DNA from: Bacillota bacterium
GTDB lineage: Bacteria; Bacillota; Clostridia; Christensenellales; CAMQZB01
Assembly: GCA_044426045.1 (NCBI GenBank)
Contig: JAWXUX010000007.1
Coordinates: forward strand, 26,318-90,317
Direction of reading: 5' to 3'
Length of the DNA stretch: 64,000 nt
Part shown: positions 27,257-56,801 of the stretch, in pieces
Position numbering within the stretch: position 1 is the stretch's first letter
Layout of the letters: each line of letters begins with the position of its first letter
The notes under the pieces: model-generated
What the model saw: the letters and a program-made list of their open reading frames with translations, nothing else
The model's database searches: none
What the model was told of the DNA's origin: nothing
Made by a program: the position numbers and the translations under genes

Positions 27257-28063
27257 ATGAGAAACACTATTTTGAAACGCACACTTGCCCTTTTCCTAGT
27301 TTTCGTTTTGGCTTTCACAAGCTTGAACCTAGATTGGAATTTACAAACTGTTTCGGCGGATACGGAATCTTCCACTGAAAATACTGCCGTGGCGGTAAAA
27401 ACAGCTGCCGATGTGTCACCGTATTATTTTGACGAATCGGACAACGTGTTTAGAACAACGACGGACGATGCAATAGTATCCGTGTATTATACTGATTCAA
27501 ATGAAGATACAATCACCCTTGACAAGGAGTGTACGGTTTATTATGTTTTGACTGGATCTGAAACTAGCGAATATTACAAAAGTGAATATTTGGCATATGT
27601 TGATGTTAAGACGGATACTGAAATCACTAGCACCCTTGAAACTGACGTTACAGAATGCGATGTTGCAAGTTCCACTTCCGTTGTTTCTGACAACAGTGAT
27701 GACGTTGTAATATTCGACGTGAACGCTGGCATAGATGTTTATCTTACATACCCAAACACTGACAGCGATGCCGAACCTATCAAATATTGGAAAGAACTTG
27801 ATTTGTGGCGCGTAAATGACGACATAACCAACACAGTTGAGCCAATCATTAATTCAACATTTATTAACGAGGATTCAAATTATCGCCTTACTGGAGATAC
27901 TGAGCTTCAATCTTCACTTATTATATCATCTGGCGTGACAGCAAACATCGATTTGAATGGATATGTTCTTTCTTTTGCGGATGAATATAAAGAAGCAGCC
28001 GTTGAAGGCACTATTTTGTATGTTAAAGGCACGTTGAATATTTATGACAGCCGTGGGAGATAA
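27257..28063 (+). CDS. giant surface protein, fragment 1 (signal peptide and N-terminal region)
   Basis: ATG at 27257 preceded by GAGAGGG. The frame ends at TAA 28061-28063. Confidence 0.6.
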   Translation: MRNTILKRTLALFLVFVLAFTSLNLDWNLQTVSADTESSTENTAVAVKTAADVSPYYFDESDNVFRTTTDDAIVSVYYTDSNEDTITLDKECTVYYVLTGSETSEYYKSEYLAYVDVKTDTEITSTLETDVTECDVASSTSVVSDNSDDVVIFDVNAGIDVYLTYPNTDSDAEPIKYWKELDLWRVNDDITNTVEPIINSTFINEDSNYRLTGDTELQSSLIISSGVTANIDLNGYVLSFADEYKEAAVEGTILYVKGTLNIYDSRGR

Positions 28064-31000: not shown

Positions 31001-33188
31001 TGACCTCACAACCGACAATGTGAAGTTGTTTTATGACATCAATGCAACCGAGCAACCTACTTTTGAAACAACCGACGACAACACAAACGACGTTGCAACC
31101 ATAGACGATGGCGACACTATCCCGCTTAAAGATTTCGACAGTGGATTCACTTTTTATATCCCAATCGCGGGTATGTATCAAGACAAAGACTACTACTATG
31201 TTTATAAAAGTGATGCGAGCGGAATTGTTGAAATTTTGACACAATCCAACAGCATTATCAAAGACGATGAATATTTCAGCATATTGGATAATGACACCCT
31301 CGTTATCCACACAACAGAGCCAGTGGTTTTCGCACTCGCGTTTGAAAATGATACATACACAATGGAGGGTGCAGAACTCACTTCCAAAGTATATAGCAGT
31401 GATTCGATTTCGTTGGAGAATTTGGGAATATTCACTAGTGGCAGCACATACACAGATAAGACTGGTACTGTTGAAAATATTCTCCTCAACACGTCAGATT
31501 ACGACTGTTCATATATTGTCACTCCAATAAGTGGGGCTGGCGTGTTTGATGAAGAAAACAACACTTTGAAAGTCACAAAAGTTGGCACATTTGAAATTTC
31601 AGTTGTGATTCCAGCAAGCGAAACTACAAATGCTCGCGAATGGATTATAACTTCAACGCTCACTGTTGATCCAAAACCTGTTTATATCAGTGGCATTGAA
31701 ACAATAGACCGAAGCTATATTGACGGGTACTACTACGCTCAAATCGAAAGCGGCATTGGAACAATTACTGGTATCATAAACGAAGATACTGTTTATGTTG
31801 ATACCTCTTCTGCTAGCGGAACTATCACTGATGCAGCTGATGTAGATTCTGAGCAAGATGATTATGATGCTATCCTTACTGCTACCGATAGAACTTTCAA
31901 TGTTTCCGTCAGCGGTGTCAAACTCACTGGTGACGATGCTGGTAACTACACAATTCAAAGCGTGGCTGATTCAACGGTTTATATCGACGTCAATGACACA
32001 TATTTCTCTTGGCCAACAGCAACAAGCATAACATACGGACAAACTTTGAACGATTCAACACTGTACGGCGGTAAGGTTTATGTTGTTGAAAAAGATGCTA
32101 CTCAAGTCGAAACTATCACTTTGATTGATGGCGATTTTGTTTGGGACAACACTGCCCTATCGGTAGTGAACGATGCAGGCACATATAACGCCGCAGTTTC
32201 TTTTGTGGTGAATGATGAAAACACAGACACTTTTGAAACTGAAATTACACTTGATGAAGCTACTACCTTTAAAACTGATGTTACTTTTGTATCTGGCACA
32301 CTTACTGACACACTTACTGACACAAATTACGTGAAAGGCGATACTATACAAGCAGGCACGGAAATAACTTCAGGCACAACAGTACTTGCGAACATCTCCT
32401 ACCAAGAAAAATATGCATATGTTGAAAGCACAACTCAATATATTTCATATGTAATCAATGTAACGCCAGTGGTGTTCAGTGTTTCAGACGATACGCAAGT
32501 AGCTTCAAGCTATGGTTCTGCGCTATATCCAACGGTTGTTGGCACATACACAGAAATCATCACTGATACAGACGGAACAACAATTTCCGAAGAGAGGACA
32601 TTGCCTTTAAGCGACTATAACGTTATATACTTCCAATCAACAGATGCTGGCTATGTCACAATCGAAAACCCAACTGAAGTTGGAACATATCTTGTCGGTT
32701 GTGAATTCACAAGCACAAACTATCACCATTCAGGCACAAGCGAAAGCACGGCTAAGCAAATTGGTTCTTTTTATATCACCGAAAGCAACGAAACCGTGAC
32801 AACATACAATGTGAATTTTTATGTTAACAACGTGAAAAACGATGATTTGTCAACAACTGTTAAATATCAAGACGTATTGATTTTGCCAACGATAGCTGGT
32901 GATGATTATATCGGTTGGGCAAATTCAGATGGAACTTTTTATGAATTTGGTGCAAGACTTCCATATACTTTCGAATCGGACACTACACTAAACGCAGTTG
33001 CGGCTCCAGAAACATATGCAATTTCGGGAACAATCAAAGGAACTGAACTTGGGCAATCAACTGACAGCGGCATCGCGGGGCTTAGCCACATTGCAATCAC
33101 AATCATGCAAGGAAGCGAAATCATTGCAACAACTGAAACAAAAAGCGATGATGAAAGCACTGCTGATATAAACGAAGTAGGCACATAG
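28044..33188 (+). CDS. giant surface protein, fragment 2
   Basis: +1 frame relative to fragment 1, open from 28038. Ends at the in-frame TAG 33186-33188. Confidence 0.6.
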   Translation: MTAVGDKDATHYWNGSDVVDTDPNPDNNNDYKFKGGAITGGATSKITNNTNVGLVYGGGGIFVLSSGKVNMYAGTIIGNKTKTTNSYGGGVYVWNGGVFNMYGGEISYNSSASIGGGVYSDGEFNLIGGKIKNNTATYGAGIYADGEVSNDDAKVTISGGTISANTATYGAGIYVAGTVVMNGGSVTGNKADTGTGGGAYLKDGSFTVSDDAKISGNTAVRTTGTTTNNVNIPNNSMTITVAGALTGTIGVIRQSGTGTVATYSGTYSELGLTNITSDDTSYYRLINEDGTVELILSQIIDGKNDSIVYYKDAITINAVTDSDGTTTESSPFFAKTDLTGAATYTVTPTTGAGTYDKSTGKLTVTSVGEFKIEVSVENTENDPPKYGTATLTVTQATITLDSISAIASAYDSNNRYVELDQSVYVEVTNEDGYQITGVINNDDVALDFSDSYGYITSTSYSTDDFTGSKGYDITVHGLTLTGADSGNYMLIINLDDDNPPTVTINTAIPYIAWPAATDITYGETTANSILSGGKVVVKLADGNDQYVDITQYGDFEWTTEISGKNVGSYAHAVQFDFDGKDGDDTSTVGDWVWNATDGDSDNTNGNWVLKDTDGNVVYTISGAVITALESQIHYVSYDVQAAAVSFEVSGNAVVTDGTFSPTYTTTCEVGSIALATDTSAGYKILYYYIDDNGIQYDDYSEIETGGTIQYYIGAEFVNADGSTNYNYHHSGSADSTAKQIAVLNIFDETDLTEYSTTFVYTASADATDDTTANTAATSISAYAGDIVVLPTLTTDANNDVADYIGWKYDGTIYDFGSRFTQPDSDVEFTAVAAETAYEISGSISGIDLDTTKGALSGVSIFLMQGSELIASDVTNADGTYSISAPDGRYTLVAMRDLGSIVNQESIFIEVSNVDNSDDYAVSQDIELPNIRQSISLNVDAGFTGITASGLYGFIGAEEENTINVNVDQVDLYGTEYSAILAAAAEDDLTTDNVKLFYDINATEQPTFETTDDNTNDVATIDDGDTIPLKDFDSGFTFYIPIAGMYQDKDYYYVYKSDASGIVEILTQSNSIIKDDEYFSILDNDTLVIHTTEPVVFALAFENDTYTMEGAELTSKVYSSDSISLENLGIFTSGSTYTDKTGTVENILLNTSDYDCSYIVTPISGAGVFDEENNTLKVTKVGTFEISVVIPASETTNAREWIITSTLTVDPKPVYISGIETIDRSYIDGYYYAQIESGIGTITGIINEDTVYVDTSSASGTITDAADVDSEQDDYDAILTATDRTFNVSVSGVKLTGDDAGNYTIQSVADSTVYIDVNDTYFSWPTATSITYGQTLNDSTLYGGKVYVVEKDATQVETITLIDGDFVWDNTALSVVNDAGTYNAAVSFVVNDENTDTFETEITLDEATTFKTDVTFVSGTLTDTLTDTNYVKGDTIQAGTEITSGTTVLANISYQEKYAYVESTTQYISYVINVTPVVFSVSDDTQVASSYGSALYPTVVGTYTEIITDTDGTTISEERTLPLSDYNVIYFQSTDAGYVTIENPTEVGTYLVGCEFTSTNYHHSGTSESTAKQIGSFYITESNETVTTYNVNFYVNNVKNDDLSTTVKYQDVLILPTIAGDDYIGWANSDGTFYEFGARLPYTFESDTTLNAVAAPETYAISGTIKGTELGQSTDSGIAGLSHIAITIMQGSEIIATTETKSDDESTADINEVGT

Positions 33189-39888: not shown

Positions 39889-40776
39889 TTAAAAAGATAT
39901 CTTAAAATACTCCATAGCACGCTTGAAATTATCTTGAGCTGAAAGGCATGTGTCCCCGAGATAGCCTTTTTCGCTTTCCCACTCTTTGAGACCACGATAA
40001 TAAAATAACTTGTGCGTTTCATCTATAACAAACGGCACGATATTATTTTTTAGGCACTGTTTCAATATTATCAGCCTACCGACCCTGCCGTTGCCATCTT
40101 GAAAAGGGTGAATACATTCAAATTTATAGTGGAAATCGAGGATATCATCTAGTTCAATTTGTTGTTTTTCGTTATATTCACAAATAAGTTTCTTAAGCTC
40201 TTTTGCGACATCTTCAGGACTTGTGGTGTTGCTTCCACCAATCTGGTTTGGCAATTTTTTATATTCGCCGACATTAAACCAACTTTTTTTGCTGTCGCTT
40301 GTGCCATTTTTCAGCACCATATGCAATTCTTTGATGAACTTTTCACTGAGACGCGCAGATGCATTTTCTATAACCATATCAATACATCTGAAATGGTTTG
40401 CCGTTTCTATGATATCATCCACATTGTGAACTTTATCAGACATGCCGATTGTGTTTGTTTCAAAAATATAGCGAGTTTCATCGTGCGTCAGCTTGCTTCC
40501 CTCGATATGGTTCGAATTATACGTCAAATCAATCTGAAGTTTATGGTAAATACCCCCGCTGGTTTTGCCATTCATTTCCTCACTGAGCCTATAAAGCAAA
40601 TTATCACTCTGATTTTTCGCCGTGTTTTTTCGCAATGGCTTAACTGCACTTTCAGGAATATTCCAAGTCTTGCCAGTCAAAAATGCCCCTGCTATTTGCC
40701 CACTAGCACAATAATTTCGCACACTTCGATCCGAAACTCCCCATTTCAAAGCCACTTCCTTTACAGATAAATACAT
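39889..40776 (-). CDS. fic: Fic family protein with N-terminal HTH
   Basis: HPFQDGNGRVGR active-site motif and SNHIEG, an [ST]xxxE[GN] auto-inhibition motif. GGAGGTGG RBS. Confidence 0.9.
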   Translation of the reverse strand: MYLSVKEVALKWGVSDRSVRNYCASGQIAGAFLTGKTWNIPESAVKPLRKNTAKNQSDNLLYRLSEEMNGKTSGGIYHKLQIDLTYNSNHIEGSKLTHDETRYIFETNTIGMSDKVHNVDDIIETANHFRCIDMVIENASARLSEKFIKELHMVLKNGTSDSKKSWFNVGEYKKLPNQIGGSNTTSPEDVAKELKKLICEYNEKQQIELDDILDFHYKFECIHPFQDGNGRVGRLIILKQCLKNNIVPFVIDETHKLFYYRGLKEWESEKGYLGDTCLSAQDNFKRAMEYFKISF

Positions 40777-41048: not shown

Positions 41049-42077
41049 CTATATAACATTTGTTTCATCTATTGGCTTCTCTATACATGCCAATATATTG
41101 TGTTCCACATACAAACTTATCCTCAGTATTTTTGTTTTTTCATAATGCGGTATTTTATTTATTCCTATAGGTCTTGTATCCTGATAGTTCATCATGCACT
41201 TAAGTTTTCGTTCAAAAAGAATTTCGTTTTTACCATTTAGCCATTGAAAAACAAACTCTAGCTCTATTTGTGACAATTCATCTAATTCTCGTTTTTCCAT
41301 TTGGTGTTTATCGTATTTACATTTATCCAAAGTATCCGTAAAATTAAAAGTAACACTATTTTCATTAAATATAATATCTTCAACAAATAAACCGTTCTTC
41401 TCAAACATGTCACTTCTGCATACTTTTACTTTATCTTTATATTTATAAAATAATTTTTCATTTTTAGCCTTCAAAAGAGTCATAAATGTAGATTTTTCCA
41501 CGTGATTTCTGCACAATATAACATTTAAACTGTCATCGATATTATACTCATTAGGACATAAAATTTCTGCATGCCTATATTTTCTATCCTCATAATCTGC
41601 AAAGTTATTACCATAAATCTTTTTAAAATTTAATTTAGCAAAATCATCTTCACCACTATACAACTCTGCTCCATGTCCAGCCTGACTGAATTCAGAAAAA
41701 GCAACACCGTTTGTTTTTAAAATTTTTTCCATATCAAAAAGAAAAAATATTGGTACAGTGACATTTGCATTTCTATCACCGTCATACCTCAAATCAGGAT
41801 GCTTATACCCCTCATTATAATATTGAGTTGGAGTCATCGGTCTAAAATAAAATCTAGCACTAGACAAAGCTTCACTCTCCGTCATGTTAATTACTTGCAT
41901 ACTAGCGTTATCATTTTTCATCAACTGCTTATCCGATACTTGTAATCTACTATATATATATCCAGTTGACAAAATATTCACTGCATTTGTGATATCTGTA
42001 TAATGATATGCAAATTTAGGCCACCATGCAACATCTGCTATTTCACAGTTATTTTTTATTATTTCTGAATATGTCAT
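41049..42077 (-). CDS. darT: DarT-like (DUF4433) ADP-ribosyltransferase with a ~130-aa C-terminal extension
   Basis: FAYHYTDITNAVNILSTGYIYSR, ARFYFRPMTP, FSEFSQAG and YRHAEILCPNEYNIDDSLNVILCRN match my recollection of DarT motifs. The start is coupled to the macro gene (GAGGGG RBS inside its end). Confidence 0.65.
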   Translation of the reverse strand: MTYSEIIKNNCEIADVAWWPKFAYHYTDITNAVNILSTGYIYSRLQVSDKQLMKNDNASMQVINMTESEALSSARFYFRPMTPTQYYNEGYKHPDLRYDGDRNANVTVPIFFLFDMEKILKTNGVAFSEFSQAGHGAELYSGEDDFAKLNFKKIYGNNFADYEDRKYRHAEILCPNEYNIDDSLNVILCRNHVEKSTFMTLLKAKNEKLFYKYKDKVKVCRSDMFEKNGLFVEDIIFNENSVTFNFTDTLDKCKYDKHQMEKRELDELSQIELEFVFQWLNGKNEILFERKLKCMMNYQDTRPIGINKIPHYEKTKILRISLYVEHNILACIEKPIDETNVI

Positions 42078-42081: not shown

Positions 42082-42933
42082 CTACCCCTCTAATCCGAAG
42101 GCTCTTCCGCGGCCTTCATTAAGCTGATAGCCATCAACAAATACACCTTGCTTATCCATAATACGGACTTTCGAAATATATCCTAGGTCATTTAGTAATT
42201 TACAAAAAATGCTTTTTATATTATTGCTTTCGCTTTTAAATATCAAATCATTTCTAACCTCATCCCATATTCCATACAATTCTTCAAAGGTTGTAATATA
42301 TTCTTCATTTCCACATTTAAAAATATAGTTTTCGCCATCTTTTTCAACAGTCCAATCATTTTCAAAAATATATGAAATCATTCTACATTGCTCTTCAACA
42401 TCGTCAAGAACACCTCTAAATGACATATTTTTTGCATCTTTTTTGAGCCAATCCATAGTTCCTTTTGGATTTTTGTGTTCAGGTTCGATATTCTCGCCAG
42501 GTCCTATATAGATATAAACATCTATAGGCAACGGCTTCAAATATTTTTCCATTATCGGACGCACATCATTCCAAGACAATTCCCCATTCCCGCATCCCAA
42601 TCTAGGAAACGCTATTGAAGTTATACTTTTTTCCGCATACGTACTAACGAATTTTCTTAGACCATCTTCTATATATTCAAGTTTTGACGGATTCCTCCAA
42701 TGCTCTTTAGTTGGAAATAGCAACACCCAATGATCAGGGAAATAGAACAACATAAGTTTTCCTGTTTTTAAAGCATGCTTTTCGCAAACTTTTTTATAGT
42801 CATCAAACATTCTAGGATATCTATTTTTGAATGTCAATGCAAGACCCTTTCCCATAACTCCAACTGTATTGACCGTATTAACAATAACTTGCGCCGGACT
42901 ATCAAATATATTACCTTCTACATATTCTAACAT
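42082..42933 (-). CDS. darG: macrodomain protein (DarG-like antitoxin candidate)
   Basis: VIVNTVNTVGVMGKGLA and SIAFPRLGCGNGEL macro motifs, plus a ~130-aa C-terminal domain. Confidence 0.7.
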   Translation of the reverse strand: MLEYVEGNIFDSPAQVIVNTVNTVGVMGKGLALTFKNRYPRMFDDYKKVCEKHALKTGKLMLFYFPDHWVLLFPTKEHWRNPSKLEYIEDGLRKFVSTYAEKSITSIAFPRLGCGNGELSWNDVRPIMEKYLKPLPIDVYIYIGPGENIEPEHKNPKGTMDWLKKDAKNMSFRGVLDDVEEQCRMISYIFENDWTVEKDGENYIFKCGNEEYITTFEELYGIWDEVRNDLIFKSESNNIKSIFCKLLNDLGYISKVRIMDKQGVFVDGYQLNEGRGRAFGLEG

Positions 42934-42941: not shown

Positions 42942-43160
42942 TCATTTCAACTTAATCTTTTCACCATTAGGCAACACAAAATCGCATTCAATTTTGCAAC
43001 CTGTCACCATAGCAATTGTATCTAAATTATCCAAACTGAATGAACCCCGTTTAATTTTTTGCGAAAATGCTTGCGGAGTTACATTCATTCTTTTTGCAAT
43101 CTCCGCAGCAGTCAAGTCCGTTTTAGCACATAAAGTTTTTATCTGTTCATCTATTCTCAT
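42942..43160 (-). CDS. XRE-family HTH protein
   Basis: DLTAAEIAKRMNVTPQAFSQKIKRG. ATG at 43160 preceded by GAGGT. Stop lies 8 nt before the macro gene. Confidence 0.7.
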   Translation of the reverse strand: MRIDEQIKTLCAKTDLTAAEIAKRMNVTPQAFSQKIKRGSFSLDNLDTIAMVTGCKIECDFVLPNGEKIKLK

Positions 43161-43253
43161 ACTATACCTCACATTTATTATAAACTATTTCGTTTAAAAT
43201 GTCAATATATACGTTGATTTTATATTACTTAATATATTGTATATTTTTATACT

Positions 43254-43865
43254 TTACACCATTTTTATAAACTCGCTCGCAATATCCACATCGTCAATTC
43301 TTATTGTTATTTCTTCATCGGTGGCAAAGCCCATGAAATTTATATTGCCGTACCATGTGATTTTACAATCTATCACTGCGAAGTTTTGATGTACTTTTTC
43401 TTTTTGAATCACTTTAATTCCAAAGTTTTGAAGGTGCTCTATATTTCGCGATACGGCGTCTTTCATTTCTGGTTTGAAAGATTCTGTTTGTGTTGTTATT
43501 ATTGTCACGACAGTGCCGTTTAGCATTGCTATGGCAAATTCTTTTGCTATATTTGTTATTCTATCTTTTTTCAAAGATGAGGCGAACACTACAATTTCAC
43601 AATTTGCTTTTCTTATATCTTCATAGAATGCTTTTGAGTAATTTTCTGTGTTATAAATAATATTTGGATTGTTTTCTACCCCTTCGCACCCTAATATTTT
43701 ATAGCCTATTTCCGCATAACTTTTAACCCTTTTGTGATACATTCTTTCAAGCACTGGCACGTGGATATCGGCGTAGTCGTATATCACTACATCCTTTTTG
43801 TTATCTAGCAAGCGATGAAGTCTGCCAGCATATTGAGCAACTTTGCCCTTCCATGCTATTGGCAT
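43254..43865 (-). CDS. helicase motif VI plus HKD-like domain fragment (C-terminal 203 aa)
   Basis: Same frame as the upstream fragment. Its first Met lies 13 codons after the TAA. Confidence 0.55.
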   Translation of the reverse strand: MPIAWKGKVAQYAGRLHRLLDNKKDVVIYDYADIHVPVLERMYHKRVKSYAEIGYKILGCEGVENNPNIIYNTENYSKAFYEDIRKANCEIVVFASSLKKDRITNIAKEFAIAMLNGTVVTIITTQTESFKPEMKDAVSRNIEHLQNFGIKVIQKEKVHQNFAVIDCKITWYGNINFMGFATDEEITIRIDDVDIASEFIKMV

Positions 43866-43904
43866 TGCAAGAAAAAGGGTATCTAATCTCGGGAAATCAA
43901 ATCC

Positions 43905-46187
43905 TTAACCCACGTATTTACCCGTTGCGATTATAACTAGGCTGTCGCAATCTTTATATTCTGCGAGTTTTTCACTTGCCAATCGCTTTTCTTTAGCAGA
44001 CATTGTGCCAACCAATTTGACTATGTTCTCGCACTTATCTTTCAAAAGCTCGCTCAATAGTTCCACATGACCTACTCGCTCGGTCAAAACAAGTGGCGTT
44101 CTTCCATTTCCTAGTGCTGAAACAACATCACCAACTATCATTTTATTTCTCTCGCTATTTTTTGCAATGTCATTATATATTTGAGAGATTTGCTTTTCGT
44201 CTTTTATTGCCGTCACTTTCAATTTTGTAAATCTAGGGGAAATATAATGCTCAAATGGACGATTGCCCGCCTCCGTTTTGGCATCAACTCGGTATCTTAT
44301 ATCCCCACACTGCAAGAAAATTATTGGATGGTGCCCGTCTTGTCTTGTTGGAGTTGCAGTTAGCCCATAAACATACCTCGCACTTGCACACTTCAAAATC
44401 TTTTCAAAATTCACCGCCGACACATGATGGCATTCGTCAACTATTATTTGCCCATAGTTTCGCACAAGTTCCTTGACCTCGCCACCCTCAAATAGCGATT
44501 GCATAATAGCCACATCAACTTTGCCATTCAATGTGTTTTTGCCACCGCCAAGAATGCCAACTGGGCTTAACTGTTTTTTGCGTCCACGCTTTTTAGGCTG
44601 ATCTTCGACATCAATTTCTGGTTGTTGCAAAATCAAAAATTCCTCAAGTGATTTTTGCCACTGAGAAAGCAAGCTTTGAGTGTGAACTAGCACAAGGGTG
44701 TTTGTTTTATGTTTTGCTATTATATTAGCAGAAACCACCGTTTTTCCAAAAGCAGTAGTTGCAGAAAGCACCCCCGTGTCATGCGCAAGCAAAGCGTTCA
44801 CTGCCAAAGATTGTTTTTCTCGCAATTTGCCTTTAAATTCTGCTTGAATTTCCTTTCCAAAGTTCCTTTCGTCTACAATCTTATAACTCACATCTGCATT
44901 TTCCAGCATGCGAACAAGCGATTCTTTCCCTCCTCTTGGGATTGAAATATAATCACCATCATCTTCTGCAAGCGTTATTATCCGCGGTTTATTATATATC
45001 GGCAGTCGCATAGCTTGCGATTTATAGAAATCAGGATTTCTGAATGAAACCAACCTTTTAATCTGCGTTTGTACTTTTTGCGATAAACCAGCTTTACCTA
45101 TATAAATCGTTCCAGCCTCCACTATTTCCACTTCACTGCAAGTGAAATCTTCTTTTGAGATTACGGTTTTTCTAGCATTTTGCCACGGCTTTTTGTTCTC
45201 ACTTTCTTCATCTGTTGTGACTAGCTCACCTAAATCAGAATTAACGCATAGAACTGCCACTTTTCCCTCTACTTCTACAAGTGTTATCTTCTTAGCTTCA
45301 GAAAGATACGCCCATTGGTCTTTTATTGGAGCGAAATCATCATCCACAAACACACTGTTACCATTCTTTCTAGCAAGTCCTTGCAACGGCAGTGCAATAA
45401 GATTGCCAAAACCACCGTGTGGCATATTGTCTTGGTTTGGGAAAAGTCTATCGTATGAATCAAATTTGATATCGCTTCGGCTGCTCATTGCAAACGTCAA
45501 AAGACCGCTCCCCAACTTTCTTGCCAAATAGCTAGGAACGCACTCTGCAAAAAATATCCAAACATGTGCGCCGTTTCCCGAGCGAGAACGCTCAATATAT
45601 ACTGGAATTTCATGTTCTTGTGCAACTCCCTTAAAAGCTAAAACATCTTTTTCGTATTCTGCATCGTCAAAGTCCAATGCTAAAAAATGGCAAGCTTCAT
45701 CTTTTAGCATTGGATAAATTCCCAACACATCTTTCCCTTGCGAATCCTTGCCACGTAAATGATTTTCTATGACTTCATCACTTATAGATTTCAATTTCCT
45801 ATGCGGACAAGTTGCACATTTATATTTCTTTTTGTCACACAAATAACTGTTCCATTCATTTAAACAAACGGGCTGATATCCACTCTTTCCTGTTTTGGCA
45901 CTGTACCACCGCCGAGCAAATACATCATCCCGCCCCTTGAAAAGCGAGCGAAACAACGTAATTTTGTCTTCCTTTGAACTTTGCATATTAACTTGCAGTA
46001 TTTTATTTTGAGTGTTTCTATCTTCTGCTAGAACTGGCAGGCTATCTTCATTTACAGCCAATAAACTTTCTATATCTACATTTAAATCACGCAGTCTATC
46101 ACGAAAAACACCATTCTCAAACCGCAATCTTTCGTTTTCTAAAAGCAATTTGTCGTATAAAGTTTTTAATTCGTCGTAGTTATTCAT
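43905..46187 (-). CDS. AEP-helicase fragment (N-terminal 760 aa)
   Basis: Tracked ORF 43905..46208. Ends at the premature TAA between helicase motifs V and VI. Confidence 0.6.
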   Translation of the reverse strand: MNNYDELKTLYDKLLLENERLRFENGVFRDRLRDLNVDIESLLAVNEDSLPVLAEDRNTQNKILQVNMQSSKEDKITLFRSLFKGRDDVFARRWYSAKTGKSGYQPVCLNEWNSYLCDKKKYKCATCPHRKLKSISDEVIENHLRGKDSQGKDVLGIYPMLKDEACHFLALDFDDAEYEKDVLAFKGVAQEHEIPVYIERSRSGNGAHVWIFFAECVPSYLARKLGSGLLTFAMSSRSDIKFDSYDRLFPNQDNMPHGGFGNLIALPLQGLARKNGNSVFVDDDFAPIKDQWAYLSEAKKITLVEVEGKVAVLCVNSDLGELVTTDEESENKKPWQNARKTVISKEDFTCSEVEIVEAGTIYIGKAGLSQKVQTQIKRLVSFRNPDFYKSQAMRLPIYNKPRIITLAEDDGDYISIPRGGKESLVRMLENADVSYKIVDERNFGKEIQAEFKGKLREKQSLAVNALLAHDTGVLSATTAFGKTVVSANIIAKHKTNTLVLVHTQSLLSQWQKSLEEFLILQQPEIDVEDQPKKRGRKKQLSPVGILGGGKNTLNGKVDVAIMQSLFEGGEVKELVRNYGQIIVDECHHVSAVNFEKILKCASARYVYGLTATPTRQDGHHPIIFLQCGDIRYRVDAKTEAGNRPFEHYISPRFTKLKVTAIKDEKQISQIYNDIAKNSERNKMIVGDVVSALGNGRTPLVLTERVGHVELLSELLKDKCENIVKLVGTMSAKEKRLASEKLAEYKDCDSLVIIATGKYVG

Positions 46188-46194
46188 TAATTCA

Positions 46195-47157
46195 TTAAGC
46201 TTCTTCAATTAAATCAAATATTGAATTTTGCACATTTGCTCTAGTTTCAGGTGTATTTCTTACATAATTCAAGTCAAAATTCAAATCTATTGGCAGGGCT
46301 CCTTGTGCGATAAGTTGTTTATTTCCTTTATACTCGCTATTATCCCAGCAAAGTGTGTGCCCCCAATTATTTCTCAAATTCTCAGTTGCACCCGCCCATG
46401 TACCACCTTTGTTATAGTCAGCTTTCACCACAACAGTTCCCAAAGCCTGGGCATATATATATTTATTTCTTTGCATTGCCATTCCAACGTTAAATCCCGC
46501 ACTAGGACTGCTTGCGGAAATCAACACTAGCTTGCCATCACGTATCGCTTTCGCTGTTTTGCCATTTTTAATTTTCCTAGCCATAGAATCCGACAAAAAT
46601 TCAATCGCAACACCACCGATATTGATAGCTTCACTTGTTGCAACAGTATCCACTCCTTTAGCTCCGCCAGAAGCAATATAAAATTGTGATTCAACTGCTT
46701 TTTTAACCATTTCTTCAGTAAATTTCACATCTGCTCCTGAGACATTTCTTGAGCCGACATATCCAATAGACTCATTGTTTAACAAGTCGATATCTCCACA
46801 ATAATAAAATAGCGGTGGACAGCTTTGCTTAAGCTTTCTTTTTAAATTTTTTGGATACTCATCATCTGCTCTTGTCACTATGTTTATACCCATGCCATTC
46901 AGCTTTTCAATCTCAAACGCTAAACTGCCACCTCTATCTAGCAATCGTTTTATTCTATCTGCTTTACCACTATCAAAGCACAGAATATCATTAAAATCTG
47001 CTATACCAAAATCCAGCAAATCTTGTGGCGATTTTTTATGGACAATCAGTTGACTGGAAATTTCTGCCCACTCTTTTGGGAGCAATGGACTTATTCCTTC
47101 ACCAACACCAATATGGCTGCACAAACAGAATATTACTTCGCTAATTTTATTTTTCAT
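46195..47157 (-). CDS. DprA/Smf-like (SLOG Rossmann) protein
   Basis: GYVGSRNVSGADV...ASGGAKGVDTVATSEAI...QRNKYIYA. Start overlaps the RecQ stop (TAATG). Confidence 0.8.
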   Translation of the reverse strand: MKNKISEVIFCLCSHIGVGEGISPLLPKEWAEISSQLIVHKKSPQDLLDFGIADFNDILCFDSGKADRIKRLLDRGGSLAFEIEKLNGMGINIVTRADDEYPKNLKRKLKQSCPPLFYYCGDIDLLNNESIGYVGSRNVSGADVKFTEEMVKKAVESQFYIASGGAKGVDTVATSEAINIGGVAIEFLSDSMARKIKNGKTAKAIRDGKLVLISASSPSAGFNVGMAMQRNKYIYAQALGTVVVKADYNKGGTWAGATENLRNNWGHTLCWDNSEYKGNKQLIAQGALPIDLNFDLNYVRNTPETRANVQNSIFDLIEEA

Positions 47158-49214
47158 TATAACTCCTTACTACTGCTATCTGCAAGTGCAAAAGGGAAAA
47201 CACATTGTACACCTTTTTCCATTAATTTATATCCACACACGGTCAAAGTCCATTTTGAATCTATAACATCATCAACCAATATGATTTTTTCAGGAAAATT
47301 TTCTACATTTTTCACTGAAAATGATTTTTGGGCGTTATAGCACTGAAATGAACTATTCTCCATTTCTTTTTGCACTTTTGCCTCACTTTTATCAATCAAT
47401 GATACAAATTCTAATTTTAACGATTGAGCTAATCTCTTTGCAAAATCTTCAACTATGTCACTTCTCAATGAAGGAACGCACGTGATGTGGGTGTATCCCG
47501 CACCTCTTAACTTTTCGGATAGCACTTTTGCACTCTTTCCCACCAATTCATCACTAAATCTTTTTTCTATATATTTACCCTTCTTAACCAATTCCCCATA
47601 ACCTGGGTCTCCATATTTACTCAAACAAATTCCAATTTCATTTAAAGGTTTTATTTTGCTAGCCTTCGGAGTTATAGATGTTGTTGCCCACATCTTTCTC
47701 GGCTCTATAGGAATGGTTAAGCTATTCAAATATTCGAGTGCTCCACTTCTCTCTTCATTTGACAGTTCGGTATTAAAGATATCATGTCCCAAACAGTTTG
47801 CACATTTGCCACAATTTTTTCCATTGTCATCATCTAAGCAATTAACAACAAATTTACTATAGCATGAATTGATTTCTACAAGATCTTTAATTTGCTCTTT
47901 TTCTCTTCTTCTTATGGCTTTTATCTCTTCATAATGTTTTTCATTATATTCATACTTATTCGTCGTTATATAATAATAGTTTTTTTCTTTATAGATAGCA
48001 CGTTCATTTTCTAGAAAATTTAAAGTCTTTTCAATATTGCTTTTGCGTTTATTGACATAACTTGATATTTGCCCTAGTCTTATTCCATCATGCCCCCCAA
48101 TCACACCATAAACTTGTTCACATTCGTCCCTTGATGGAAATGCGGTTTCTATAAAATATTCAGTTATATTGTCATCCTCTTCTCCCGAAAGCAAAATTGC
48201 ATAAGCCTTATCTATATTTCTTCCCGCTCTGCCAATTTGTTGATAGTATGTAACGATATTTGCAGGTTTTTGAAAATGAATAACGAAACCTATATCACCC
48301 TTATCATACCCCATACCAAGCTTGATTGTGGCAACGATAACCTTGATTTTATTTTTTGAAAACTTCTCAAGAGCAATCCTGTTTTGCTCTTCATTTTCAC
48401 TTCTTGAATAATAAGGCGCTGAACTTATTCCATTTTTATTCAAAAAGGAAGATAAATAATCACAATCTCTTTGCGTTAAACAATATATAATTCCCGTGCC
48501 TGGCAACTTGTTAATATTTTTCAAAATCCAAGCATATCTATCCGCCCTATCTTTCATCTTAACGACTTGAATAGCTAGTGATTCTCTTGTGAGTGGTCCT
48601 CTTGAAACAAATACATCTTCTCCAAGCTGAACTTTCAAATCTTCAACAACACGATCGTTTGCAGTTGCCGTAGTTGCAAGTATTGGTATATTTGATAGGG
48701 TGGACTTTATAACTTTATATAAATTACTATATTTCAATCTGAAATCGTGCCCCCAATCAGATATGCAGTGTGCTTCATCAATCACAAACAACCCAATTCT
48801 TATGCTGTGAATTGCTTCTTGCACTTCTTGCAAAAACAAAGTCTCTGGCGTTATAAGCAACAAATCAATTTCATCATCTTTTAAACTTTGGATTATTTCA
48901 CTCCGCCTTTCTGCAGTAGTCGAATTCAGCTGTTCGCACCTGAGCCCCAATTTATTAGCTGCTTGTATTTGATTTTCCATAAGAACTAACAATGGACTTA
49001 TGACAAATGTTGTGCCTTTACCTTGTTTTCTCAATAGTTTAGTGCAAACGAAATATACTAAACTCTTACCCCAACCTGTCTTTTGAACAACTAGCGTCCT
49101 CTTTTTTGTCATCGTTTCTTCAATCGCTTCATATTGACCATCGCGAAAATCGCTATTGCTACCATATAAAGTATGCAAAATTTCATAACTTTCATTTTTT
49201 AGCTCAGTGTTCAT
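47157..49214 (-). CDS. recQ: RecQ-family helicase fused to a C-terminal phosphoribosyltransferase (ComF-like) domain
   Basis: QKTGWGKSL, DEAHCISDWGHDFR, QQIGRAGR and the zinc motif CGKCANC. PRTase motif IILVDDVIDSKWT near the C-terminus. Confidence 0.85.
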   Translation of the reverse strand: MNTELKNESYEILHTLYGSNSDFRDGQYEAIEETMTKKRTLVVQKTGWGKSLVYFVCTKLLRKQGKGTTFVISPLLVLMENQIQAANKLGLRCEQLNSTTAERRSEIIQSLKDDEIDLLLITPETLFLQEVQEAIHSIRIGLFVIDEAHCISDWGHDFRLKYSNLYKVIKSTLSNIPILATTATANDRVVEDLKVQLGEDVFVSRGPLTRESLAIQVVKMKDRADRYAWILKNINKLPGTGIIYCLTQRDCDYLSSFLNKNGISSAPYYSRSENEEQNRIALEKFSKNKIKVIVATIKLGMGYDKGDIGFVIHFQKPANIVTYYQQIGRAGRNIDKAYAILLSGEEDDNITEYFIETAFPSRDECEQVYGVIGGHDGIRLGQISSYVNKRKSNIEKTLNFLENERAIYKEKNYYYITTNKYEYNEKHYEEIKAIRRREKEQIKDLVEINSCYSKFVVNCLDDDNGKNCGKCANCLGHDIFNTELSNEERSGALEYLNSLTIPIEPRKMWATTSITPKASKIKPLNEIGICLSKYGDPGYGELVKKGKYIEKRFSDELVGKSAKVLSEKLRGAGYTHITCVPSLRSDIVEDFAKRLAQSLKLEFVSLIDKSEAKVQKEMENSSFQCYNAQKSFSVKNVENFPEKIILVDDVIDSKWTLTVCGYKLMEKGVQCVFPFALADSSSKEL

Positions 49215-49353: not shown

Positions 49354-50349
49354 CTACTTTTTAGACGTTTCTATTTGCTTTTGCGTTTTTTTCAACGCAT
49401 CAATATATTCTTTTTCGACTGGAGAAAGCAACTCATCTTCTAGTTTCTTATATTTTTCATATTCTTGATCTGCTTTGATAATCGCCTGTTTATTGCTTAT
49501 GCTCCCACCACCAATCAACACACCTTGTCCGTATCTTTGTGCAAAATCATCAATTTCTACGACCCAATCTTTCATATACATTGGCTCTCTTCTCATTGCC
49601 CTTAGTTCTGCCAAATCAAAAAAAGCAGTCACCAAACGATTTAACACAGCAAGTTCATCTTCTTTTAAATAGTTCTTGGCTATTCTAGTTTCACTTTTTA
49701 TTGGTCTATCCCCTTTGAAAGTTGTTAAACCCATAAATGGCAACTCTGAATTGGCACGCTGATATATAACTTCCGATGCTGTGCTTTTATGTGTTGCATA
49801 ATGGAGTTTATTTTGCACAACCTTGAAAAACTCTACTGTTTCTTCTGCCTTTGGACTATAATCAACACTAGTTGCATATAAGTCCAAAACTTGCCTATAC
49901 AAAACTTTTTCGCTAGAACGAATATCTCTTATCCTTTCAAGCAGTTCTTTCCAATAACTTCCGCCACCAGCTTGTTTCAGTTTTTCATCATTTATAGTGA
50001 ATCCTTTTATTAAATATTCTCTTAAAATATTCATCGCCCATTTTCTAAACTCTGTGCCACGAAGGGACTTCACTCGATATCCTACTGAAATTATAACATC
50101 TAAATTGTATAATTTTACCCTATAACTCTTGCCGTCACTTGCAGTTGTCAAGGATTCCTTGACAACTGCAATCTCATCAAGTTCACCCTCTTTGAATGTA
50201 TTATTTATATGCAAACTTATATTTTGTTTGCTTGTTTGAAAAAGCTCTGTCATTTGCATTTGAGAAAGCCAAACTGTTTCGTCCTCCACTTGAACATCTA
50301 TTTTAGTTGAGCCATCTATTGATGTATAAATTATCATTTCGCTATTCAT
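49354..50349 (-). CDS. RhuM family (virulence-associated) protein
   Basis: VWLSQMQMTELFQTSKQNISLHI...YNLDVIISVGYRVKS..GTEFRKWA is typical of RhuM. Confidence 0.8.
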   Translation of the reverse strand: MNSEMIIYTSIDGSTKIDVQVEDETVWLSQMQMTELFQTSKQNISLHINNTFKEGELDEIAVVKESLTTASDGKSYRVKLYNLDVIISVGYRVKSLRGTEFRKWAMNILREYLIKGFTINDEKLKQAGGGSYWKELLERIRDIRSSEKVLYRQVLDLYATSVDYSPKAEETVEFFKVVQNKLHYATHKSTASEVIYQRANSELPFMGLTTFKGDRPIKSETRIAKNYLKEDELAVLNRLVTAFFDLAELRAMRREPMYMKDWVVEIDDFAQRYGQGVLIGGGSISNKQAIIKADQEYEKYKKLEDELLSPVEKEYIDALKKTQKQIETSKK

Positions 50350-50467
50350 GCCACCCTCCCCACATAAGTTACTTTTGTGAATTATTCATATTACATTAAA
50401 TTTTATCACGATATATTAAATTTGTCAATGTTTGCGGGCAATTAACCGCTAGTTCATTGCATTAAAG

Positions 50468-51991
50468 CTATATCCCCCTCACCACCGATTCTCCGCCCTT
50501 AAATTCTAGTTTTAGGGTGGTTTTGTTTATGACTATTATTCTTTGCAGCAGGCTTTTCATTAGTGCTGTGTCGAACGATTGGAGCAGGGTGGCTTGTTTG
50601 GATATTTCTAGGATTTTGGCTTTTCTTGATTCGGTTAGGATTTTTTCTGCGTTTAGGGTTTTTATTTTGGCTTGTGCGGATTCTTTTGCCCTCAGTTCTT
50701 TGGATAGGATTTCTATTTGATTTTGATAGACATCATCAGTTATTTCGCTGTTTTTTCTTGCGGTATGCAAAGCTATGGCTTGTTGTTGCAAGGTTATTAT
50801 TTCTTCTTCTATTGTGTCTATTTCAGCTGTTTTATCGGCGTTTATTGCTGCCTCTATTGTATTTGTTATTTGATTTGCATTCAACATATTTTCTGCCAAC
50901 TCTTTCAGTGCAGATAGGTAGGCTTTTTCAACGTCGGATTCTTTCAGCGTTATACTCTCGCATTTGCCATCGTGGTTTGCTATTCTGTGAGTGCAGACCC
51001 ATGTTGGGATTTCTTTGCCGTTTGGGTTCTTTCTTATCAGCCTTCTATATCTTGACATACAGTCTCCACAGATTATCATGCCACTGAATGGGTATTTGCT
51101 GACGTATTTTCCTTCGCCTGTTTTGGTTGCGTAGTCAGCTTTTTTTCTTATTTTTATCTCCTCCTGAACTAGGTCGAAAAATTCTTTTTCTATTATTGCA
51201 GGGTGACTGTTTTCCACATAGTACATTGGCATTTTGCCGTCGTTCTTTATACGTTTAGGACTCAGCACATCAGGTTTATAGGTTTTGCCTAGAATTGCAT
51301 CACCTTTATATTTGATGTTTTCAAGCATACGCATAATTGTTGAGCGTTGCCAATTTGTTCCGTTTCGCTTTGTTGGGATATCATCACGTTTGAGACCATC
51401 GACTATTTGGTTCACAGAATATCCACATAGGTATTCCCTGAATATCCTTTTGACAATATCCCCCTCTTCTTCCACAATTTCTAGCGTGTTATCTTCTGTC
51501 ATTTTATAACCCAACACGCCTTTTCCAACAACCACATGACCTTTAGAAAATTTTTCTTCATACGCCCATTTTTGGTTTAGACTATTGGTGCTGACATCGT
51601 TTTCCGCAATGCTCGCAGCTATTATAAGGTAGATTTCACTGCTGGTTTGAAACGTGGATATGTGTTCTTTATCAAAGATAACTTCCACGTTCATATCTCG
51701 CAGTTCTCTCACTGTTTGCAAAAGCTCTGCCGTGTTTCTTCCGAACCTTTGCACTGATTTTGTGTATATCACATCAATCCCACCAGCTTTGCAATCTTCT
51801 ATCATTTTCACGAACTGCAGCCTTTTTTCTTGCGTTCTGCCACTGATTCCTTTATCTGCATATATTCCGCAAAGCTCCACTTCTTCGCTTCTTTCAAGAT
51901 GCTCTTGCCAATAGCATTTCTGAAACTCAAAGCTGTGCGATCCGCCATCACTTTTGCCAGATACTCTGATATACGCCACTGCTTTTTTCAT
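50468..51991 (-). CDS. large serine recombinase
   Basis: N-terminal resolvase domain AVAYIRVSG...YADKGISG...SVQRFGRN, a recombinase domain, a Cys zinc ribbon (CGDC...C..C) and a C-terminal coiled coil. Confidence 0.9.
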   Translation of the reverse strand: MKKAVAYIRVSGKSDGGSHSFEFQKCYWQEHLERSEEVELCGIYADKGISGRTQEKRLQFVKMIEDCKAGGIDVIYTKSVQRFGRNTAELLQTVRELRDMNVEVIFDKEHISTFQTSSEIYLIIAASIAENDVSTNSLNQKWAYEEKFSKGHVVVGKGVLGYKMTEDNTLEIVEEEGDIVKRIFREYLCGYSVNQIVDGLKRDDIPTKRNGTNWQRSTIMRMLENIKYKGDAILGKTYKPDVLSPKRIKNDGKMPMYYVENSHPAIIEKEFFDLVQEEIKIRKKADYATKTGEGKYVSKYPFSGMIICGDCMSRYRRLIRKNPNGKEIPTWVCTHRIANHDGKCESITLKESDVEKAYLSALKELAENMLNANQITNTIEAAINADKTAEIDTIEEEIITLQQQAIALHTARKNSEITDDVYQNQIEILSKELRAKESAQAKIKTLNAEKILTESRKAKILEISKQATLLQSFDTALMKSLLQRIIVINKTTLKLEFKGGESVVRGI

Positions 51992-53174: not shown

Positions 53175-53285
53175 AATTAACCTCTTTTTTAATACCGTAA
53201 GTATAGCACAATTAATCGCTTTTGTAAAGATGAAAAGCAAAATACAACAGCCGTTTTCAGCGTTGCCTTGATATTCTATTACTTT

Positions 53286-54410: not shown

Positions 54411-54441
54411 ATTAGCCTCCAAAATTCATATGTTCGCTAAC

Positions 54442-55141: not shown

Positions 55142-55663
55142 TTGAAAACACTTCAAGAACTTTATCTTTACAATGATAAAGTATCTGCTTTTATACATTT
55201 TATAGCGTACGCAATATCTTGGATATTGGGAATAGTTATCTTTCATATAAAAGCTGAATATAATTTTGCTGGATCATACTTAATTTTTGCCCTTTCTCTC
55301 TTAACCGAATTCATACCACAATTATCTAATATAAAGGGTAAAATTGCTAGTCTAATTCACATGCTTTTTTGTCTCATTATAGCATTCATTCTAGTCTTCT
55401 CTATATTACTATTGAGTGATTTATTAACCGAACATTTACTAATTACTTTATATCACTATTTATTTATCGCATCAATAATAGTTATCACTTATATATTATT
55501 AAATTTGATTTTGATTACAGTATTCCCTCCAATTGACAAAAATATTACAAAACATTACCCAAGTAAAGATTCTCAATATTATTCAATGGTCGAGGAAGCA
55601 TTTGTCAAAAACTTACACAATGGCCATTTAGGCAATGTAATTGGAGGTAATAAGGATGAATAA
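55142..55663 (+). CDS. integral membrane protein, unknown function
   Basis: TTG start with AAGGAG 6 nt upstream. Four to five TM helices. Overlaps the ParA-like gene by 8 nt. Confidence 0.6.
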   Translation: MKTLQELYLYNDKVSAFIHFIAYAISWILGIVIFHIKAEYNFAGSYLIFALSLLTEFIPQLSNIKGKIASLIHMLFCLIIAFILVFSILLLSDLLTEHLLITLYHYLFIASIIVITYILLNLILITVFPPIDKNITKHYPSKDSQYYSMVEEAFVKNLHNGHLGNVIGGNKDE

Positions 55664-56801
55664 TACCGTAGCTTTCTTAAGCGGAAAAGGTGGTAGCGGA
55701 AAGACCACAATAGCCCTAAGTGTTTCATCAATGCTATCTAAATGCAACATAAAAATATTGCTGTTAGATTGTGACTTAAACACGAATGGAGCAACTTATT
55801 TCTACGAAGAAAAACTTTCGCAATCGAAAAACATACTGTCATTTCAGGATCTCATCTGCGACGATATTGATATTGACACTATTACACAAATAAATAGTAA
55901 TATGTTTTTTATTCCATCTATGACTAAATTCTCAGAAAAAAACACACTTCCTTCGTTATTTGATAGCCATGCAAAATTAAATTTCAATAGAAACATGCAA
56001 AAATTATTATCTAATTATGATGTTATACTATATGATTGTCAAGCTGGATACTCAGAAGTTTTAGAACTTGTTTTGCCTTTAGTTGATACAAATTTGATAG
56101 TAATGGAATCCGATGCTATTAGTGCATCATCATTAAGAAACTTATATTTAAAAATTGGACATTTATTGAATGACAATCATACTTATCAAATATTCAACAA
56201 AGTATCAAGTGATGAGTATAAAATATACTCAAAATTATCCAAAGAAACTTTCTTCCCTAATATTGAAACTGTTCTTTTTAATTGGGAAATCAGGAAAGCA
56301 TTTGCATTAGCAAACGTTCCAAACATTGACCATTTAACAGCAAGTTATGGTAGCCAAATCAACAATATATGTATGATTTTATTTAAAAATAATCTTCACA
56401 AAAAGCTTGAAAGTTACAAACAAATACTTTTTAAACTGAATATTAACGAAGAACTAGACTCACTAAAAAAAGAGCACCTAGAACTTCTCAAGTCTACAAG
56501 ATTGCAAAATCCTAAAAAAATAAATATCTATTTAGGCACAACTTTAACATGCACTATCTTGATTCTATATAGCCTTATTTTTCAAATATACGATATCTAT
56601 TACCGATTTGAGAATTTACTATCACTTACAATATCAGCATTATTTCTAACCATACTAGTAATAAGTATATTGTTGCCATCACTTAACAAATCCAAAGAGT
56701 TATCGCTTAAACGAAAAAATATAGATAATTTAGAAAAACAATTAGTTGACTTAGAAAACCGGCACGAATCCTTATCTCTTGACATAATAAAACTTGATTA
56801 A
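55656..56801 (+). CDS. ParA/MinD-family P-loop ATPase with C-terminal TM helices and a coiled coil
   Basis: Deviant Walker A SGKGGSGKTT, then LLLDCDL and VILYDCQAG. Two hydrophobic helices near the C-terminus. ATG preceded by GGAGG. Confidence 0.8.
   Translation: MNNTVAFLSGKGGSGKTTIALSVSSMLSKCNIKILLLDCDLNTNGATYFYEEKLSQSKNILSFQDLICDDIDIDTITQINSNMFFIPSMTKFSEKNTLPSLFDSHAKLNFNRNMQKLLSNYDVILYDCQAGYSEVLELVLPLVDTNLIVMESDAISASSLRNLYLKIGHLLNDNHTYQIFNKVSSDEYKIYSKLSKETFFPNIETVLFNWEIRKAFALANVPNIDHLTASYGSQINNICMILFKNNLHKKLESYKQILFKLNINEELDSLKKEHLELLKSTRLQNPKKINIYLGTTLTCTILILYSLIFQIYDIYYRFENLLSLTISALFLTILVISILLPSLNKSKELSLKRKNIDNLEKQLVDLENRHESLSLDIIKLD

Follow-up and report, generated by a model that had tools for sequence, protein, structure and literature searches.

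A PsyrTA-type toxin–antitoxin pair beside a disrupted AEP–helicase–PLD gene in a Bacillota defence island

PsyrTA, also described as RqlHI, is a two-gene toxin–antitoxin (TA) system in which a RecQ-like toxin with a C-terminal phosphoribosyltransferase (PRTase) domain is encoded ahead of a DprA-like antitoxin (Sberro 2013; Russell & Mulvey 2015, PMC4670107; Millman 2022). Here, we analyse a locus that contains genes of this type in a 64,000-nucleotide stretch of DNA from a Bacillota bacterium (assembly GCA_044426045.1, contig JAWXUX010000007.1, positions 26,318 to 90,317 of the forward strand). This stretch is referred to as the window, and all coordinates are those of the window unless a contig or locus is named. 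Three open reading frames (ORFs) between 43254 and 49214 encode a RecQ–PRTase fusion (gene 1), a DprA-like protein (gene 2), and a fusion of AEP primase-polymerase, superfamily 2 (SF2) helicase, and phospholipase D (PLD)-like domains (gene 3). A preliminary description of this DNA, made from the nucleotide sequence and its translations, proposed that the three genes form a candidate multi-gene defence system or, alternatively, the replication and processing module of an integrative element. Our analysis indicates that genes 1 and 2 are a copy of PsyrTA and that gene 3, a broken copy from a very large stand-alone family, most probably lies beside them by chance.

Considerable information exists on the two closest described systems. 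RqlH of Escherichia coli on its own triggers the SOS response, filamentation, growth arrest, and mutagenesis, and its toxicity maps to the PRTase domain (PMC4670107). The toxin is encoded by rqlH, the first gene of the operon, and is bound and neutralised by RqlI, a protein of 400 amino acids (aa) in which residues 1–320 are fully active and the C-terminal helix-turn-helix (HTH) is dispensable (PMC4670107). A survey published in 2015 found RqlI almost exclusively in Gram-negative bacteria (PMC4670107). PsyrTA is among the two-gene TA systems that protect against phage (Millman 2022, bioRxiv 10.1101/2022.05.11.491447); the authors of that study did not succeed in deleting psyrA and name toxicity as a possible cause (bioRxiv 10.1101/2022.05.11.491447). 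In the second system, ShosTA, a PRTase toxin is likewise neutralised by a DprA-like antitoxin, and toxicity of ShosT involves binding of phosphoribosyl pyrophosphate (PRPP) and disruption of purine metabolism (PMC11961720; PMC12961424). The ShosT literature consulted (PMC11961720) describes a PRTase plus pyrophosphatase and makes no mention of a helicase, whereas PsyrT is a RecQ fusion.

The PsyrT–PsyrA pair

The cluster comprises the following features.

47157..49214, minus strand: psyrT/rqlH-type toxin gene (gene 1, 685 aa), with a RecQ-family SF2 core, zinc region CGKCANC, and C-terminal PRTase motif IILVDDVIDSKWT
46195..47157, minus strand: psyrA/rqlI-type antitoxin gene (gene 2, 320 aa), a short form that has a DprA-like Rossmann domain but not the C-terminal HTH of E. 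coli RqlI
43905..46208, minus strand: N-terminal fragment of gene 3, with a coiled-coil leader, Cys cluster, AEP prim-pol domain, and SF2 helicase motifs I–V
43905..43907, minus strand: nonsense codon TAA of gene 3, inside helicase motif V (GKYVG-stop-GFD)
43254..43904, minus strand: in-frame remainder of gene 3 (216 codons), with the rest of motif V, motif VI (QYAGRLHR), and a divergent PLD-like domain (HQN...GNIN)

The ORF coordinates agree with the preliminary description in that the three genes, the interrupted gene 3 spanning 43254..46208, lie on the minus strand with overlapping or nearly abutting ends. The stop codon of gene 1 and the start codon of gene 2 have one base in common (47157; TAATG), as had been stated. 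Genes 2 and 3 do abut, with 7 nt, previously given as 8 nt, between the stop codon of gene 2 (TAA, 46197..46195) and an in-frame ATG of gene 3 at 46187. An alternative TTG start of gene 3 at 46208 would overlap gene 2. The motifs quoted in the earlier description are all found in the translations, namely DEAHC, CGKCANC, and IILVDDVIDSKWT in gene 1, ASGGAKGVD in gene 2, and LALDFDD, SGNGAHVW, GKT, DECHH, TATP, QYAGRLHR, and HQNFAVIDCKITWYGNIN in gene 3. Searches of all three proteins against Pfam, NCBIfam, and PADLOC profiles placed the domain assignments far beyond chance.

Gene 1 matches the PADLOC model of PsyrT almost from end to end (positions 5–688 of 689 of the hidden Markov model (HMM); E 6.2e-236). 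It also matches the Pfam families DEAD (3.5e-24) and Helicase_C (1.5e-19) and passes the NCBIfam model TIGR00614 recQ_fam (266 bits; cutoff 219.8). PADLOC matches to DpdF, Cas3-like, and BrxH models were rejected as generic helicase similarity, their scores being far below that of the PsyrT model. For a structural model of the full-length protein (predicted local distance difference test (pLDDT) score of 76), the best PDB matches are RecQ catalytic cores (E about 1e-22). The PRTase signal is sub-threshold at the level of sequence (Pribosyltran, E 0.0049), and the PRPP loop aligns to PRPP synthetase 1dkr. Because RecQ matches dominated the fold search with the full-length model, the C-terminal 186 aa (residues 500–685) were modelled separately, which gave a pLDDT of 78.7 and a predicted template modelling score of 0.81. 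The top 50 PDB fold matches of this model are type I PRTases only and include ComF (7p0h) and ShosT (8zvd, 8zvc, and 8zvb). These fold matches confirm the PRTase assignment even though the sequence match lies below threshold. Residues D648, D649, D652, S653, and T656 of the PRPP loop are invariant in 16 sequences, and gene 1 retains all columns that are invariant across 15 homologues. The family match, the RecQ-core fold, and the PRTase fold thus bear out the earlier view of gene 1 as RecQ with a C-terminal phosphoribosyltransferase, and on profile and model evidence we assign the protein as PsyrT.

Gene 2 matches the PADLOC model of PsyrA (E 1.1e-92) over HMM positions 6–305 of 398 and the Pfam family DNA_processg_A (E 1.7e-35). 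Its match to the ShosA model is far weaker (2.4e-25, compared with about 1e-92 for PsyrA), which sets the pair apart from ShosTA. Sequence matches in the PDB are DprA (3uqz) and ShosA (9vzo). The DprA-type Rossmann/SLOG protein recognised in the preliminary description is therefore upheld by the DNA_processg_A, PsyrA, and 3uqz matches. PsyrA is 320 aa long here and 319 aa long beside the closest relative of PsyrT; its median length in metagenome loci is 392 aa. The C-terminal part of the PsyrA HMM left uncovered corresponds to the HTH region, which E. coli RqlI does not need for activity. The short HTH-less PsyrA is the counterpart of the minimal active RqlI(1–320) fragment of E. coli.

The association of the two genes was examined in the best 80 metagenome loci of at least 595 confirmed candidates for PsyrT. 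PsyrA lies directly downstream of PsyrT in 57 of the 62 loci with room for it (at least 900 nt downstream), and it is the only conserved neighbour family of PsyrT (53 loci; the next family occurs in 4). The RecQ–PRTase and DprA-like genes had been suspected to work together, and the PsyrTA profile matches and the conserved pairing support a functional pair. Like PsyrTA/RqlHI, the locus has a RecQ-like toxin with a C-terminal PRTase, a DprA-like antitoxin, the order toxin then antitoxin, and an overlapping stop and start. It differs in the antitoxin, which has 320 aa and lacks the C-terminal HTH compared with the 400-aa RqlI of E. coli, and in the host, a Bacillota metagenome-assembled genome (MAG) as against the almost exclusively Gram-negative distribution of RqlI in the 2015 survey. 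Both profile and structural comparisons indicate that genes 1 and 2 are a copy of the known two-gene PsyrTA (RqlHI) toxin–antitoxin anti-phage system. The system itself has already been published; this copy extends it to a Bacillota lineage that is uncultured and whose antitoxin is short and HTH-less.

The gene 3 family and the disruption of gene 3

The N-terminal fragment of gene 3 has 760 aa when translated from the ATG at 46187 and 767 aa from the TTG at 46208. It matches the Pfam families AEP-TOTE (PF22548; E 6.4e-97; 324 bits, cutoff 27), ResIII (9e-23), and DEAD (2e-10), and the sequence after the stop codon matches PLDc_2 (E 1.3e-10). These matches agree with the order of coiled coil, AEP prim-pol, SF2 helicase, and HKD-like motif given in the preliminary description, which had also suggested, correctly, a database name combining "TOTE" and "AEP", that of PF22548. 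The AEP domain matches the PADLOC model of the Cas-associated PrimPol (E 4.9e-87) and fails the cutoff of NCBIfam NF040561 (95.5 bits; cutoff 200). The PLD region matches the PADLOC models of the DrmC and MkoC PLD domains at about 1e-7.

Each of these matches relates gene 3 to a described system at the level of domains. TOTE conflict systems are named for TPR, OB, TBP, and Effector (Aravind et al. 2022, as cited in bioRxiv 10.1101/2025.09.15.676423). Gene 3 has the AEP domain family (PF22548) in common with them, which is a likeness of domain family and not of system. A Pfam scan of 20 of the larger ORFs flanking the cluster (33–63 kb) revealed no TPR, OB/CSD, or TBP gene. None of these families is among the top 25 Pfam families of 150 neighbours of gene 3 homologues, and a TPR/Sel1-like family occurs in 3 of 80 gene 3-relative loci. 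The PrimPol match recalls CRISPR-associated primase-polymerases (CAPP; NF040561), as does an intact gene 3 homologue (P0110) that, within 5603-16355 of ERZ15610166 NODE_47, has a DUF4143/AAA_14 ATPase on one side and a complete type II-A CRISPR-Cas locus (Cas9, Cas1, Cas2, and Csn2) on the other. However, gene 3 falls short of the CAPP cutoff, its AEP domain forms a single protein with SF2 helicase and PLD domains, and a scan of ORFs around the cluster (33–63 kb of the window) revealed no cas gene. DISARM DrmC and Mokosh MkoC show the same layout of an SF2 helicase followed by an HKD nuclease, the PLD similarity being weak and confined to the domain; they lack an N-terminal AEP domain, whereas gene 3 has one and carries HxN in place of the catalytic HxK.

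The N-terminal fragment of gene 3 aligns along its whole length with 23 full-length homologues, which have about 950 aa, and a homology search returned a family of at least 8000 members, all with E of 1e-10 or below. Nearly all of the best 120 homologues have 940–980 aa and combine AEP-TOTE, ResIII/DEAD, and PLDc_2 domains. Among the matches listed, no intact relative is more than 57% identical, and the one entry nearer than this is an identical truncated product of 760 aa. The C-terminal module varies among relatives. In the best 80 loci of at least 593 confirmed candidates from species-representative genomes, it is an intact PLD domain in 27, a degenerate PLD domain in 13, and DUF559, a restriction-endonuclease-like domain, in 17; 11 have no such module. 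Within the literature library searched, no experimental report on the family was found: one PrimPol-RT paper proved unrelated, and a preprint on component modularity is silent on AEP.

The reading frame of gene 3 from 46208 to 43254 consists of 984 sense codons and a single internal TAA at 43907..43905 (GKYVG-stop-GFDFPRLD). The corresponding position in helicase motif V is Glu in all 23 aligned homologues (GKYVGEGFD), and the interruption amounts to a single change of GAA to TAA. Two independent Logan assemblies (SRR26557943 and SRR26557939), whose DNA is 100% identical to the window, carry the same codon, and the 760-aa product that ends at this codon is also recorded from an NCBI "Bacillota bacterium" MAG. 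Programmed read-through or recoding was considered and ruled out, as TAA is the commonest stop in the window and terminates 24 of 36 long ORFs, psyrT and psyrA included.

Conservation on either side of the helicase–PLD boundary suggests that the two defects in gene 3 differ in age. The helicase stretch after the stop (residues 769–845) is 71% identical to homologues, compared with 78% among the intact homologues themselves, and none of 38 invariant columns is changed. Because this segment is conserved at a normal level, the nonsense mutation is recent. The PLD segment, in contrast, is 34% identical to homologues, compared with 57% among homologues. Its catalytic motif reads HQN...GNIN (HQNFAVIDCKITWYGNIN), in which Lys and Ser are each replaced by Asn, and departs from HxK(x)4D(x)6G(S/T)xN. 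The preliminary description had pointed out this single HKD-like motif and both of its substitutions, and the comparison with relatives adds that the motif is degenerate, HxK...GSxN being kept in 103 of 119 close homologues. Degenerate motifs are also found in 13 of the 40 PLD-bearing loci from species-representative genomes, where the catalytic His or Lys is lost even in intact genes. Because such motifs recur in intact relatives, divergence of the PLD domain is older than the stop codon and recurs within the family. Decay of the PLD domain following the nonsense mutation was ruled out on the same grounds, together with the normal conservation of the helicase just past the stop. The recurrence of degenerate motifs suggests that the PLD domain frequently has a non-catalytic role in this family.

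The 760-aa product retains the conserved AEP sites (DxD, SxH, and the Cys cluster) and is without helicase motif VI. To judge from its sequence, gene 3 is a pseudogene, a broken copy predicted to be non-functional here as a helicase-nuclease.

Co-occurrence of the three genes and competing readings

If the three genes formed a unit, their relatives would be expected to occur together. Homologues of PsyrT or PsyrA are absent from all 80 gene 3-relative loci, 56 of which extend at least 3 kb upstream, and no AEP-TOTE gene is present in any of the 80 metagenome PsyrT loci, 39 of which extend at least 2.5 kb downstream. The triad was also missing from all 29 IMG/VR loci that carry gene 3 relatives, and no PsyrTA was found there. 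Clustering of ORFs disclosed no conserved partner of gene 3: the commonest neighbour family, whose median distance is 4.7 kb, occurs in 11 of the 80 loci. The closest relatives give the same picture. The nearest gene 3 relative (P0003) lies among metabolic genes and another (P0015) beside a Schlafen/AlbA_2 gene, and neither is part of a triad; the closest relative of PsyrT, which is 64% identical, is followed by PsyrA and then by an SLFN-g3 helicase, again with no triad. In every sample taken, the three genes did not co-occur outside this genome, an outcome that the preliminary description had itself named as one that would speak against its proposal. We put the probability that the triad is a chance neighbourhood of PsyrTA and an unrelated gene in a defence island at roughly 0.8. 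These surveys portray gene 3 as a member of a very large family of single genes that stand alone, with no conserved partner gene.

Several points weigh against this reading. The samples were the best 80 of at least 593 and 595 confirmed candidates, so that a rare triad confined to one lineage could have been missed; the nearest sequenced relatives share only 57% (gene 3) and 64% (PsyrT) identity. The tight spacing of genes 2 and 3 (7 nt, no terminator) is compatible with co-transcription, and a genuine operon partner would be placed likewise. Identity with typical metagenome PsyrT proteins is only about 40–45% and is probably lower with the E. coli protein, and the toxicity, neutralisation, and phage protection ascribed to this copy of PsyrTA are assumed from its orthologues. 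A defence role of the gene 3 family would likewise draw on context and architecture. As to context, the neighbour census had no matched control, and the PADLOC neighbour census consists of per-family counts for descriptive use only; the 150 immediate neighbours of gene 3 homologues include AbiEii (7), AbiEi (3), DUF4143/AAA_14 (4), SNF2 (2), Schlafen/AlbA_2 (2), and integrases (3). Finally, full-length but PLD-less gene 3 relatives, about 811 aa long, are found in 96 plasmid records, and the two plasmids inspected (NZ_CP076848.1 and NZ_CP014801.1) are conjugative and alphaproteobacterial. One of these relatives lies between TA modules and type IV secretion system (T4SS) and relaxase genes, and the other near ParB, a zincin-like metallopeptidase, and DUF736.

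Mobile-element replication typically employs AEP–helicase fusions. Either gene 3 or the cluster as a whole could be the replication or DNA-processing machinery of an integrative element with a large serine recombinase, the primase-helicase serving to prime or establish the DNA of the element. Such a recombinase is indeed encoded about 1.3 kb upstream of the cluster, beyond a RhuM gene, and the plasmid-borne relatives near relaxase/T4SS genes or ParB point in the same direction. Gene 3 relatives are also carried by IMG/VR contigs, but the 29 contigs in question come from 2.9 million, compared with at least 593 matches in species-representative genomes, and no full-length relative was found in 50,697 phage genomes. 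Integrases account for only 3 of the 150 neighbours, among whose top 25 Pfam families are no relaxase, T4SS, or Rep families. A ResIII/XPB-like SF2 translocase joined to a nuclease that is swapped between PLD and DUF559 has a restriction-like architecture rather than that of a replication protein. Moreover, the closest gene 3 relatives lie among metabolic genes, and genes 1 and 2 match PsyrTA, not replication genes. We consider this explanation unlikely. The replication module envisaged in the preliminary description finds no support for the PLD-bearing form of gene 3; it may apply to the PLD-less relatives, whose presence on conjugative plasmids suggests a possible role in plasmid establishment.

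A second alternative is that the three genes constitute one three-component defence system, in which PsyrTA senses or signals, the AEP–helicase–PLD protein is an additional DNA-targeting effector, and the TAA is either a recent knock-out or tolerated. This model would account for ORFs that overlap or abut with no terminator-like site between them, for the DNA- or nucleotide-directed domains found in all three proteins, and for the setting in a defence island. It is contradicted by the failure of the genes to co-occur in 80, 80, and 29 related loci or beside their closest relatives. PsyrTA, moreover, strictly comprises two genes, which published tests show to function as a pair, and the relatives of gene 3 stand alone in unrelated contexts. 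The nonsense codon bears on the model directly: gene 3 is disrupted here and therefore cannot be a working third component. The candidate three-gene system of the preliminary description is not borne out by these findings, and we regard it as very unlikely.

A housekeeping RecQ and DprA pair that serves recombination or transformation would agree with the RecQ-family and DNA_processg_A matches and with the RecQ core fold, but it is scarcely tenable: both proteins fail the equivalog cutoffs (TIGR01389 for RecQ, 302 bits against 640; TIGR00732 for DprA, 84 bits against 191), gene 1 carries a PRTase domain in place of the C-terminal HRDC domain of housekeeping RecQ, the end-to-end PsyrT and PsyrA matches have far better scores, and the setting is a mobile defence island of low GC content.

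The defence island and the proposed explanation

The cluster is surrounded by the following features.

52326-53240: Bro-N gene, PADLOC PDC-S13 (E 1.5e-123, nearly full length), beyond the recombinase
50468..51991, minus strand: large serine recombinase (Resolvase, Recombinase, and Zn ribbon)
50400..50428, minus strand: promoter-like site upstream of the RhuM gene, 11/12 with a TG extension; consensus match only
49354..50349, minus strand: RhuM gene, PADLOC PDC-S05 (E 9e-148, nearly full length)
43177..43205, minus strand: promoter-like site TTGACA-17-TATAAT, 12/12 sigma-70 consensus match; consensus match only
42942..43172, minus strand: HTH gene (76 aa) that follows the perfect sigma-70 site at 43205..43177
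42082..42933, minus strand: DarG, macro domain (PADLOC DarG, E 3.6e-62)
41049..42077, minus strand: DarT, 342 aa (Pfam DarT, E 1e-23)
39889-40776, minus strand: Fic/HTH_17 gene, PADLOC PDC-S04 (E 1e-108, nearly full length)

On the minus strand, the large serine recombinase is followed by RhuM, psyrT, psyrA, gene 3, the small HTH gene, DarG, DarT, and Fic. By its gene content, the stretch from 39 to 54 kb reads as a defence island, and the DarTG, RhuM, Fic, Bro-N, and PsyrTA matches substantiate the earlier view of the region as conflict or defence DNA. Past the DarT domain, the DarT protein has about 135 further residues to which no domain could be assigned. Beyond the recombinase, HTH genes and a ParA-like ATPase (55641..56801) are located within 53997-56801. 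Two B12-binding radical SAM proteins of 456 and 809 aa (57283-58653 and 60337-62766) flank CYTH and HAD genes, and the plus strand carries an ORF of 1714 aa at 28044..33188.

A helicase of about 1630–1650 aa recurs at two other loci. It is encoded at 3042-7922 of locus L165, where it matches DEAD and UvrD, and at 1829-6772 of locus L188, where a RecQ-like core is the only match. L165 has it immediately upstream of the closest PsyrTA relative; in L188, an IMG/VR contig, it is found upstream of a RhuM gene and a gene 3 homologue. The same components of the island appear in a reshuffled arrangement.

No terminator-like site was found on the minus strand between the promoter-like site at 50400..50428 and position 43254. 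On the basis of this and of the spacing, RhuM, psyrT, psyrA, and gene 3 may share one transcript, which is what tight packing of an island would produce anyway. The perfect sigma-70 site at 43177..43205 putatively marks the start of an HTH–DarG–DarT unit and, with it, the 3' boundary of the cluster.

These observations can be accommodated in a model in which two independent defence-type modules, PsyrTA (46195-49214) and gene 3 (43254-46208), would lie side by side in the island. PsyrA, produced from the overlapping downstream ORF, would bind and neutralise PsyrT, as does its orthologue in E. coli. Infection by a phage would presumably upset this balance and release or activate PsyrT, and the freed PRTase would then disturb nucleotide and DNA metabolism such that replication of both phage and host stalls. 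Sensing of phage DNA structures is one possibility for the RecQ helicase module. The gene 3 module would have been inactivated recently by the change of GAA to TAA in motif V, the catalytic Lys of its PLD domain having also been lost, and it is probably still co-transcribed with psyrTA only through tight packing of the island.

We recommend that the locus be annotated as PsyrTA with an adjacent pseudogene rather than as a new system of three genes. The AEP-TOTE/SF2/nuclease family, which is very large and stand-alone and has an exchangeable and often degenerate nuclease, deserves more attention than the locus itself. To judge from architecture and context, its PLD-type subfamily most probably consists of conflict proteins that stand alone and target DNA. 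It is tempting to speculate, at somewhat less than even odds, that the family could be a widespread single-protein anti-phage or anti-plasmid system with primase-polymerase activity in immunity. If so, the window shows such a system stacked behind PsyrTA in one transcript, just after its inactivation; in a weaker variant, this lineage may truly have coupled gene 3 functionally to PsyrTA. A defence screen could reasonably include an intact member of the gene 3 family, but not the copy in the window.

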